From Christensenella sp. UBA3217 (GTDB lineage: Bacteria; Bacillota; Clostridia; Christensenellales; CAG-1252): DNA of 64,000 nt. Under the pieces are notes generated by a model. The model saw nothing but the letters and a program-made list of their open reading frames with translations. It ran no database searches and was not told the origin of the DNA. A program made the translations under genes and the position numbers. Positions within the stretch are counted from its first letter, which is position 1, and every line of letters begins with the position of its first letter. The stretch lies in assembly GCA_002363545.1 (NCBI GenBank), contig DEWF01000010.1:80412-144411 (forward strand), read 5' to 3'. Positions 5,541 through 7,573 of the stretch are shown here, piece by piece.

Positions 5541-5569
5541 TTGATAATGCGCGCTTTTTTTATTATAAT
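5541..5569 (+). promoter_or_regulatory. Sigma-A type promoter of hflX (TTGATA-17-TATAAT)
   Basis: TTGATA at 5541-5546, a 17-nt spacer, TATAAT at 5564-5569. The ATG lies at 5576, only 6 nt after the -10 box. Confidence 0.55.
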
Positions 5570-5575
5570 AAGGTT

Positions 5576-7132
5576 ATGATACATGGCAATACGGACGGTA
5601 TAAAACGGGCCCTGTTATGGCGCCTTGAAAAACATCTCGGCTTTACCGATAAGTCTTCCTTCGTCAGTGAGGAAACTCTTGCCGTTATCACCGAGTTTAC
5701 GCAGGCAACGGGACGGGAAGTTTCGGTGTATTTGAGCCGCACGGGCAGGGTGGAAGCCATTTCGGTGGGGGATGCCGTAAAGGTGGATGCGTTGGCACTC
5801 GGAAAACGCAGAGGGGAAAACTCCAAAAGCAAGATCCGCGTGATCCATACCCATCCCAAGGGATCTGCGCGCCTTTCCGCGGCGGATCTTTCCGCCTTAA
5901 AAGAAATGCGCTACGATTGCTTGGCGGCAGTTGGCGTATCGGCGCAGGGCGCAAACAAAATGGAAATAGGTTACCTTGCTCCCACGGGGGTAAAGATCAT
6001 AGACGTATCGCTGGATGGTATGGACCACGCTGCTTTGCTGGATATGATCGTGGAGTGCGACACCGTGGGTAAAGCCCGCGGCGCCGTAAAGGAAGAGATC
6101 AATTCGCGTTGCATCACGGTGGGCGTGGGGGATGAAGAATCCCTTTACGAACTCAAACGCCTTGCCGAAACCGCCAATTACGAGCCTGTCGGAAGGATCA
6201 TGCAAAAGCGCACCACGGTGGATTCTACCTATTACGTGGGTAGCGGTAAGATCGATGAGATCGCCATGGAAGCGCAAATCAAGGATGCCGCTATCGTGAT
6301 CTTTGACGTGCCGCTCAGCGCCGTTCAGCATGCCGCCATCAGCGAAAGGTTGGGGCGCAGAGTGATAGACCGCGGCACCTTGATCTTGGAGATCTTTGAA
6401 AAGCACGCCACCACCGCCGAAGGCAGGTTGCAAGTGGAACTTGCGCGCTTAAAATATACCCTTCCCCTTCTCGTGGGACAGGGGGAGAGCATGAGCCGTC
6501 AGCGCGGCGGATTGTATGCAATGGGCGGTGCGGGTGAAACCAAACTGGAAACGGATAGAAGGCATATTCGCCGTAGGATATCGGAACTAACGGAAAAACT
6601 GAAAGCCTTGGAAGAGGGCAGAGATCTCCGCAGACGCAAGCGCAAGCAAAGCGGCATCAAAAGCGTGACCTTGCTGGGGTATACCAACGCGGGAAAGAGC
6701 ACTTTGATCAACGCCATCAGTCGTTCCGACCTGTATGCGGAAAACAAATTGTTTGCCACCTTGGATAGCGTGAGTCGTAGCGTATGGACGGAAGAAGGAA
6801 ATTACGTAATGACCGATACCGTCGGGTTCATTCGCAATTTGCCGCACACTTTTGTGGAGGCTTTTAAGTCCACTTTGGATGAAGTGCGTTATGCCGATCT
6901 TTTGATCCACGTGGTGGACGCCTCTTCTCCCGAGATGGCGGCACAGATCGCCACGGTGGAAGAAGTTATTCGTGAGATCGGAGCGGAAAAAGTGCCTCTC
7001 ATCACCGTTTACAACAAGGCAGATAAGGCGGAACGTGAAGAGGGGAAACTGTATATCAGCGCCAAGTTCGGAGAGAATTTGGAAGTGTTAAAGCAAAGGA
7101 TAAAACTTGCCCTGTTTGGGGAAAAGGAGTGA
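5576..7132 (+). CDS. hflX: GTPase HflX with an N-terminal RadC/JAB-like extension
   Basis: HflX N-domain and linker (GSGKIDEI, DRGTLILEIFEKHATTAEGRLQVELARLKY). G motifs GYTNAGKST, DTVGF and NKAD. The extra ~170 N-terminal residues carry HTHPKGSARLSAAD. Confidence 0.9.
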   Translation: MIHGNTDGIKRALLWRLEKHLGFTDKSSFVSEETLAVITEFTQATGREVSVYLSRTGRVEAISVGDAVKVDALALGKRRGENSKSKIRVIHTHPKGSARLSAADLSALKEMRYDCLAAVGVSAQGANKMEIGYLAPTGVKIIDVSLDGMDHAALLDMIVECDTVGKARGAVKEEINSRCITVGVGDEESLYELKRLAETANYEPVGRIMQKRTTVDSTYYVGSGKIDEIAMEAQIKDAAIVIFDVPLSAVQHAAISERLGRRVIDRGTLILEIFEKHATTAEGRLQVELARLKYTLPLLVGQGESMSRQRGGLYAMGGAGETKLETDRRHIRRRISELTEKLKALEEGRDLRRRKRKQSGIKSVTLLGYTNAGKSTLINAISRSDLYAENKLFATLDSVSRSVWTEEGNYVMTDTVGFIRNLPHTFVEAFKSTLDEVRYADLLIHVVDASSPEMAAQIATVEEVIREIGAEKVPLITVYNKADKAEREEGKLYISAKFGENLEVLKQRIKLALFGEKE

Positions 7133-7135
7133 AAG

Positions 7136-7573
7136 ATGATCGTAAAAGTTAAAAAGACGGATGCTCGTGCAAAAGTGCCCACTTACGGCTCGCTCTCGGC
7201 GGCGGGGGCGGATCTTTACGCCGTAATAGAGGGTAATTCCCTTACGATCGCGCCGGGTGAAACAGCCATGATCGGCACCGGACTTGCCTTGGAGATCCCC
7301 GAGGGATACGTGGGACTCGTGTACGCTCGCAGCGGGCTTGCCACCAAAAGAGGGATTGCTCCCGCAAACAAGGTTGGCGTTATCGATTCGGATTACCGCG
7401 GAGAGGTAAAGGTGGCGCTTTATAATCATTCCGCCATTCCGCAAATCATTGAAGCGGGGGAACGCATTGCGCAACTTGTGATCGCTCCCTATTTGACCGC
7501 ACAGTTTGAGGAAGCGGAAACGTTATCCGATACCTCGCGCGCAGGCGGCGGCTTTGGTTCCACGGGTAGATAA
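7136..7573 (+). CDS. dut: dUTP diphosphatase
   Basis: Trimeric dUTPase motifs AGADLYA, ARSGLATKRGI, GVIDSDYRGEV, RIAQLVI and GGFGSTG. GGAG RBS. Confidence 0.95.
   Translation: MIVKVKKTDARAKVPTYGSLSAAGADLYAVIEGNSLTIAPGETAMIGTGLALEIPEGYVGLVYARSGLATKRGIAPANKVGVIDSDYRGEVKVALYNHSAIPQIIEAGERIAQLVIAPYLTAQFEEAETLSDTSRAGGGFGSTGR

Follow-up and report, generated by a model that had tools for sequence, protein, structure and literature searches.

A conserved JAB/JAMM-like domain at the N-terminus of the ribosome-splitting GTPase HflX in Clostridia

Introduction

HflX is a universally conserved ribosome-splitting factor that is implicated in heat-stress rescue and in the recycling of hibernating ribosomes. 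In a 64-kb stretch of the genome of Christensenella sp. UBA3217 (contig DEWF01000010.1, positions 80,412 to 144,411; hereafter the window), the hflX gene encodes a protein with about 170 residues in front of the canonical HflX sequence, and a first-pass annotation had taken this extension for a RadC-like JAB/MPN domain. What is this additional N-terminal domain (N-domain), and what might it do on a GTPase that splits ribosomes? The organism is a member of the Clostridia, a class rich in gut commensals, rumen organisms and pathogens.

HflX has also been implicated in macrolide-lincosamide resistance, and the published structural and mechanistic work that we found, including the solved structures, concerns forms without the N-domain (PMC12493154). 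Our search of the literature on HflX and JAB/JAMM/metalloprotease domains returned no paper assigning the N-terminal domain. The domain family is covered by no Pfam or NCBIfam model, and genome annotation says only "GTPase HflX". HflX and the JAMM domain are both of known kinds; what appears to be undescribed is the domain family itself and the occurrence of the two as a fixed fusion over a large bacterial class.

Results

An HflX with an extra N-terminal domain

The gene occupies positions 5576–7132 of the window (+ strand, as are all features of the protein given below) as one unbroken open reading frame (ORF) of 518 amino acids plus a stop codon. The GTPase HflX equivalog model TIGR03156 matched residues 187–510 with 405.3 bits against a cut-off of 216.75 (E 1.9e-121). 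Residue 187 corresponded to position 16 of this model, and residue 185 to position 22 of NF008280, the E. coli-type ribosome rescue HflX model, whose cut-off of 441 bits was not reached (274.8 bits). Because the HflX profile begins at residue 187, the protein has about 170 residues that canonical HflX lacks, in agreement with the first-pass annotation.

The N-domain was delimited to residues 1–167 (5576–6076) by an AlphaFold model built with an alignment, by sub-threshold matches to JAB-clan models and by an hhalign comparison with RadC, all described below. A short linker of residues 168–177 (6077–6106), with a dip in the predicted local distance difference test score (pLDDT) to 77–83 and no regular secondary structure predicted, leads to ND1, the HflX N-terminal domain (Pfam GTP-bdg_N, residues 187–274, 6134–6397, E 2.6e-26). 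The helical middle domain (GTP-bdg_M, residues 277–356, 6404–6643, E 7.6e-27) and the G domain (MMR_HSR1, residues 364–481, 6665–7018, E 4.4e-20) follow. This core of ND1, helical domain and G domain is the same as in canonical HflX of E. coli, Listeria (HflX/HflXr) and Staphylococcus, but the window protein terminates directly behind the G domain, without an HflX C-terminal domain; a Pfam scan did not detect HflX_C in it. That domain is likewise absent from a few relatives of about 529–534 residues (P0011, P0117 and P0081). Of 97 relatives that were scanned, about 45 of them full-length, 25 had a match to Pfam HflX_C, and most proteins of this architecture (JAB-HflX) have 585–610 residues. 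A second copy of hflX or of the JAB domain was not found within the window.

When the full-length model was compared with the PDB by Foldseek, it matched ribosome-bound HflX/HflXr of Listeria, E. coli and Mycobacterium and human GTPBP6 (E 1e-25 to 9e-35, the best being a ribosome-bound HflXr; structures matched included 8uua, 8a57 and 5ady). The solved structures covered only about 350–365 columns of the model, with a query-normalised TM-score of about 0.6. Because the alignments span the HflX core only, the solved proteins from E. coli, Listeria, Mycobacterium and human (GTPBP6) lack the N-domain, as had been stated earlier for E. coli. Among the matches listed from the PDB and viral structures there were only HflX and Ras-like GTPases, and the search was uninformative on the fold of the N-domain.

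A complete JAMM motif conserved across the family

The N-domain contains the predicted catalytic set E48, H91, H93, S101 and D104, in which H-x-H-x7-S-x2-D is preceded by a glutamate 43 residues upstream of the first histidine. The motif H91-T-H93-P-K-G-S-A-R-L-S101-A-A-D104 (residues 91–104, HTHPKGSARLSAAD) was read from the ORF translation at 5846–5887, and its coordinates and spacing were exactly those of the first-pass annotation. E48 (5717–5719), the putative general base, lies in GREVSVYLSRTGRVEAISVG (residues 46–65) within GREVSVYLSR, directly before the predicted strand 49–54 and thus at the start of strand 2, where a glutamate in a beta-strand context had been noticed. In a six-frame scan of the whole window (ORFs of at least 80 residues), H-x-H-x7-[ST]-x2-D occurred only in the N-domain and in one ORF of 102 residues. 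On sequence grounds, the motif of the N-domain is not a chance match.

Conservation was assessed in the set retrieved by HMMER and not in the loci from the genome scan described below. Among 161 aligned copies of the domain, E48 was kept in 155, H91 in 155, H93 in 152, S101 in 154 and D104 in 157, and the exceptions were almost all copies in two proteins other than HflX. The full set was present in 150 of the 152 HflX-linked copies, taken from representatives of 50%-identity clusters; the residues are thus nearly invariant among orthologues, a check that had been proposed earlier. Further invariant positions of the family were G4, N5, G8, R47, R55, G57, G65, R79, L84, R88, T92, P94, L100, L108, D114 and G120. 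The mean pairwise identity of 45 full-length proteins was 47% in the JAB core (residues 46–122), 48% in ND1, 58% in the helical domain and 52% in the G domain. The identity of the JAB core is therefore close to that of the other domains, indicating a constraint comparable to that on HflX's own domains.

The residues that correspond to H91, H93 and D104 in JAMM enzymes are zinc ligands, the one matching E48 activates water, and the one matching S101 stabilises the intermediate. E48 and S101 are conserved although they would not be metal ligands, which favours catalysis over a purely structural metal site. The loop of residues 65–86 (5768–5833), which the predicted secondary structure places between strands 3 and 4, carries a conserved R78-R79-x4-L84-S-G, as shown by the counts over domain copies, and is a candidate substrate-binding element.

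Probable membership in the JAB superfamily

The first-pass annotation had assigned the domain to the RadC type of the JAB/MPN fold. The window protein scored 17.2 bits with Prok-JAB (PF14464; cut-off 25), 16.2 bits with RadC (PF04002; cut-off 22.1) and 12.5 bits with NF000642 (cut-off 180). When 78 diverged N-domains were scanned singly, 65 matched Prok-JAB and 45 matched RadC at E ≤ 1, and no other family among the 24,736 in Pfam was matched by more than two of them. The weak matches to PADLOC models were nearly all to JAB models of the cyclic-oligonucleotide-based antiphage signalling system (CBASS) or Bil type. Against PDB sequences, a profile of the same 78 N-domains gave 17 matches at E ≤ 10, of which 14 were JAMM proteases, including AMSH-LP (E 0.013), AMSH, Sst2 and an Rpn11-like protein, all aligned on IHTHP...LSxVD. 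In AMSH-LP (2znv/2znr), the motif of the N-domain was in register with "IHTHPTQTAFLSSVD", and "IHTHPTQTAFLSSVDLHT" of that protein aligned with the family consensus "CIHTHPGGDARLSEVDLQAL".

An hhalign comparison with an alignment of the E. coli RadC family placed 77–79 columns in register (P 0.003–0.004), in which E48 paired with the glutamate of the RadC "ERE" and the HxH, serine and aspartate positions matched. The score was 24.3, compared with 12.9 ± 2.3 (maximum 20.05) in 240 column-shuffled controls, about 5 standard deviations above them. The RadC alignment consisted of enterobacterial sequences and three E. coli prophage paralogues, and its low diversity limited the power of the comparison.

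AlphaFold2 with a 150-sequence alignment yielded a confident model (pLDDT 90.9, predicted TM-score 0.85), with block means of 81–97 over residues 1–160; a single-sequence model of the full protein (pLDDT 41) was rejected as unusable. The predicted order in the first half of the N-domain was strand 2–4, helices 11–20 and 32–45, strands 49–54 and 58–64 and loop 65–86. The second half comprised strand 87–93, which ends in HTH, helix 102–111, with S101 and D104 at its start, strands 115–122, 125–135 and 138–145, and helix 151–167. In summary, the model runs b1-a-b2-b3-b4-[HxH loop]-a2[S..D]-b5-b7. AfJAMM is built around a beta sheet; helix 1 follows strand 1 and precedes strand 2, helix 2 comes between strands 4 and 5, and the zinc site lies on the loop that connects strand 4 with helix 2 (PMC300881). 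The order of elements, to which the comparison was confined, and the placement of the ligands in the N-domain agree with this description (PMC300881), so that the predicted structure has the secondary-structure order of a JAMM fold.

These likenesses have to be weighed against the possibility that the N-domain is a lineage-specific appendage of HflX unrelated to JAB, its HxH...S..D arrangement being convergent. All database matches lay below curated thresholds and the hhalign probability did not exceed 10%, as such an origin would allow. Against the PDB, a shallow five-sequence profile also had histone H4 ("DNIQGITKPAIRRLARRGG...") as its top matches at similar E-values (about 0.04–0.13), over the N-terminal strand and helices of the window protein (residues 3–58, nt 5582–5749); we judged these spurious and rejected them because they were gone with the deeper 78-sequence profile. 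In three independent libraries, however, the matches were almost exclusively to JAB, and the motif was in register every time. The five catalytic positions, the spacing from glutamate to histidine and the order of secondary structure all matched, and the RadC alignment score stood well clear of the shuffled controls. We therefore give convergence only a slim chance, and regard the N-domain as very probably a divergent member of the JAB superfamily.

Within the superfamily, the earlier label "RadC-like" is not the best one. RadC/YicR and the N-domain are both bacterial JAB domains with the same motif spacing, but the RadC signature HNHPSG-x3-PS-x2-D differs from the HTHP-x-G-x3-LS-x2-D of the N-domain, and the N-terminal helix-hairpin-helix of RadC (PF20582) had no match in proteins with the N-domain. 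The profile check favoured the superfamily in that the only recurrent matches were to the JAB clan, all of them below curated thresholds. By motif and scores, the N-domain is neither a member of the RadC family proper nor a scoring member of PF14464, and it resembles RadC less than it does Prok-JAB and AMSH-type domains.

Prok-JAB (AfJAMM; CBASS Cap3 and Bil-system BilC type) was the best recurrent profile match. Both it and the N-domain have the full E...HxH-x7-S-x2-D, both are compact and without the eukaryotic Ins-2 insertions, and the secondary-structure order of AfJAMM is identical. The N-domain differs in its own invariant N-terminal M-I-x-G-N-x-x-G-I strand and residues R55, G57, G65, RR79, R88 and D114, in an extra helix (32–45) and a C-terminal helix (151–167), and in its fusion to a translational GTPase. 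AMSH, AMSH-LP, Sst2 and Rpn11 were the best matches among solved structures, but with E-values of just 0.013–0.15 over about 40 residues around the motif, and we saw no evidence of the Ins-1/Ins-2 ubiquitin-binding elements in the N-domain. To our knowledge, the window organism has no known ubiquitin system.

Distribution and architecture of the family

Relatives were collected in two ways. A pattern and tblastn scan of one genome per species gave at least 599 pattern matches, at least 584 of which were confirmed as relatives in species-representative genomes. Among the matches listed, all 80 loci were from Bacillota, mostly Clostridia: Christensenellales-like metagenome-assembled genomes (MAGs) at 66–79% identity, and Oscillospiraceae, Defluviitaleaceae, Lachnospiraceae, Caldicoprobacterales, Fervidicella and the negativicute Dendrosporobacter at 32–47%. 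In nearly all complete loci among them, the domain heads an ORF of about 585–640 residues. A word-indexed search with a single N-domain query found 9 relatives, and an exhaustive HMMER search was needed; among 1.84 billion cluster representatives it returned 672 proteins at E ≤ 1e-3 (312 at E ≤ 1e-10), with lengths of 520–650 residues for those that were full-length. Where the sources give names, proteins with the N-domain are named only "GTPase HflX", and precomputed Pfam annotation had nothing over the N-terminal part of JAB-HflX proteins.

An error of sequencing or assembly, or an ORF call merging two adjacent genes, could in principle produce such a fusion, and some database entries are clearly chimeric. 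We did not count as real fusions P0354 (N-domain with a ribosomal protein L16 C-terminus), P0327 (with Trans_reg_C), P0368 (with an HflX C-terminal fragment) or P0113 (with an SMC-like tail); they look like assembly or frameshift chimeras, and their contigs were about 1–1.6 kb where lengths were reported. JAB-HflX itself, in contrast, was a continuous ORF in about 70 independent genomes besides the window, the same architecture was common to 44 full-length cluster representatives, and the full-length model was confident across the junction. The probability that the fusion is an artefact is next to nil. To judge from these genomes, many Bacillota, mainly of the class Clostridia, have the JAB-like domain as a fixed element of their HflX orthologue.

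The two proteins other than HflX that carry the domain were P0111 (869 residues, from a Nitrospinota MAG, annotated LptE) and P0122 (1090 residues), lipoproteins with an LptE domain (PF04390, E about 1e-11). This domain is followed by 4–5 tandem degenerate copies of the HflX-type N-domain, in which the "GN..G" motif of the N-terminal strand is partly kept and the E/H/H/S/D set is intact in 0 of 9. They apparently represent a repeated, non-catalytic use of the fold in an outer-membrane context.

Genomic neighbourhood and promoter

A sigma-70-like promoter, TTGATA-17-TATAAT, with 11 of 12 consensus positions was found at 5541–5569 (+ strand), ending 6 nt before the hflX ATG. The arrangement is kept in seven close relatives (L001–L006 and L008), and distant relatives have GGAGG or AAGGA ribosome-binding sites. 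Because a promoter adjoining the ATG leaves no space for a Shine-Dalgarno sequence, we propose a leaderless mRNA; the arrangement suggests that hflX is transcribed in this form in the window organism and its close relatives.

In the window, a lipoprotein gene diverges upstream of hflX, and the dUTPase gene dut (7136–7573, + strand) begins 4 nt past the stop codon of hflX. The order in E. coli (NC_000913, 3811891-3814387) is yicR, dfp, dut, which places the RadC-like JAB gene yicR two genes from dut. The parallel is probably a coincidence; dut follows hflX in only 5 related loci. The commonest neighbour of JAB-hflX was a cysteine-desulfurase-like gene of the NifS/IscS type, directly upstream in 15 of 80 loci (e.g. 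L038:1856-3004), and a NifU-like gene lay upstream of JAB-hflX in 5 of 80. Neither gene is present in the window.

Discussion

The N-domain is most likely a catalytically competent zinc hydrolase, to judge from its residues. Our preferred reading, which we hold with slightly more belief than doubt, goes further: the first ~167 residues would be a divergent JAB/JAMM/MPN+ hydrolase with a complete site, carried by HflX to the 50S subunit to cleave a ribosome-associated substrate.

The alternative closest to it accepts the JAMM fold and denies the chemistry. The domain would then be a steric wedge or anti-association block, or an rRNA-remodelling appendage, and its metal site would only stabilise the fold or sense the metal or redox state. 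Many MPN domains are non-catalytic scaffolds, the degenerate copies in the LptE fusions indicate that the fold can serve structural roles, and a globular domain of 170 residues on ND1 would necessarily fill intersubunit space. In mycobacterial HflX, which like the window protein has extra sequence N-terminal to ND1, the extension acts sterically and by disordering rRNA (PMC12493154). That extension, however, is a tail of 39–58 residues for which no folded or enzyme domain has been described (PMC12493154), in contrast to the folded, enzyme-like domain of about 170 residues found here. Non-catalytic MPN domains typically lose the motif, as all nine LptE-linked copies did, whereas E48 and S101 are conserved in the family as strictly as the metal ligands. 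The contrast between the full set in the HflX-linked copies and its loss in 9 of 9 LptE-linked copies favours an active zinc hydrolase over a structural module, and we consider a non-catalytic role unlikely.

If the preferred hydrolase reading is correct, the architecture suggests how the enzyme could reach its substrate. The 10-residue linker joins it to ND1, the part of HflX with which the protein docks on the 50S subunit at the intersubunit face. In mycobacterial HflX, subunit splitting starts with accommodation of ND1, and the N-terminal extension touches uL16 and H38 and extends as far as the H69–H71 junction (PMC12493154). Because that extension is at the same terminus, we infer by analogy that the JAB domain would be delivered to the uL16/H38/H69–H71 part of the intersubunit face when HflX-GTP binds. 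GTP-bound HflX would bind a stalled or idle ribosome and split it, carrying the hydrolase to the region of H38, uL16 and H69–H71, and the hydrolase would then cleave a ribosome-associated substrate there.

The likeliest target would be a bond of the peptide or isopeptide type, in a protein or peptide bound to the ribosome. We put such a substrate at the top of our ranking, ahead of a steric or non-catalytic role and, in last place, nucleic-acid processing. The first rank follows from the profile likeness to peptidase-type JAB domains and from the annotation of a RadC-like JAB gene, formerly yfjY (E. coli K-12 b2644, L084:4387-4869), as lfgB, "CP4-57 prophage protease", in RefSeq, which indicates that the RadC-type JAB proteins include at least one that is taken to be a protease.

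Nucleic-acid processing, in which rRNA, tRNA or mRNA on the HflX-engaged ribosome would be the target of cleavage or modification by the domain, has been hypothesised for RadC-type JAB domains (PMC5512222). The invariant R47, R55, R79 and R88 around the motif would suit it, as would the basic JAB core of the window protein (isoelectric point, pI, 10) and the ribosomal surroundings of a substrate, which are mostly RNA. The profile likeness, however, is stronger to peptidase-type Prok-JAB and AMSH than to RadC, there is no helix-hairpin-helix domain of the kind associated with RadC, the N-domain has an acidic mean pI over the family, and the E. coli RadC-like protein LfgB is annotated as a protease. 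On balance, nucleic-acid processing seems to us still less probable than a steric role.

Several observations weigh against a ribosome-borne JAMM hydrolase. The curated cut-off of the JAB-clan models was passed by no N-domain, the best member E-value being 2.3e-4 (Prok-JAB), and the hhalign probability against RadC was just 8.5–10%. The fold is assigned solely from the order of secondary-structure elements in a predicted model. The patterns used for the genome survey contain part of the motif, which inflates the apparent conservation in the set of loci but not in the HMMER set. The N-domain is acidic on average (mean pI 5.7) and gives no clear hint of RNA binding, and we know of no bacterial ribosome-rescue pathway that requires a JAMM peptidase. 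When the flanking ORFs of the 80 loci and the window were clustered, no ubiquitin-like protein (Ubl; ThiS/MoaD-like), E1, E2 or other partner emerged as a conserved neighbour, and no substrate is indicated in this way. In this respect JAB-hflX differs from the Ubl-linked JAB systems (Cap3, Mec+/CysO, QbsD and Bil), and a ubiquitin-like conjugation system is therefore disfavoured as the source of substrate.

A more specific proposal is that HflX of Clostridia is a two-activity rescue factor, in which the GTPase splits stalled or hibernating ribosomes and, during the same encounter, a JAMM zinc peptidase cuts a protein or peptide bound to the ribosome. Possible targets of such a peptidase would be the nascent chain, a hibernation factor or the tail of a ribosomal protein. 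We regard this proposal as possible but doubtful. The broader suggestion of the first-pass annotation, a new functional coupling of a JAMM module with a factor that acts on ribosomes, is plausible.

The five invariant residues make the hydrolase hypothesis directly testable by point mutants. Should it hold, this would be a JAMM enzyme that acts on the translation machinery without a ubiquitin-like system. If the metallohydrolase of HflX is active, ribosome rescue in Clostridia would involve a chemical step that current models do not include; and if HflX does combine the two activities, bacterial ribosome rescue would include a proteolytic step that has not been described.

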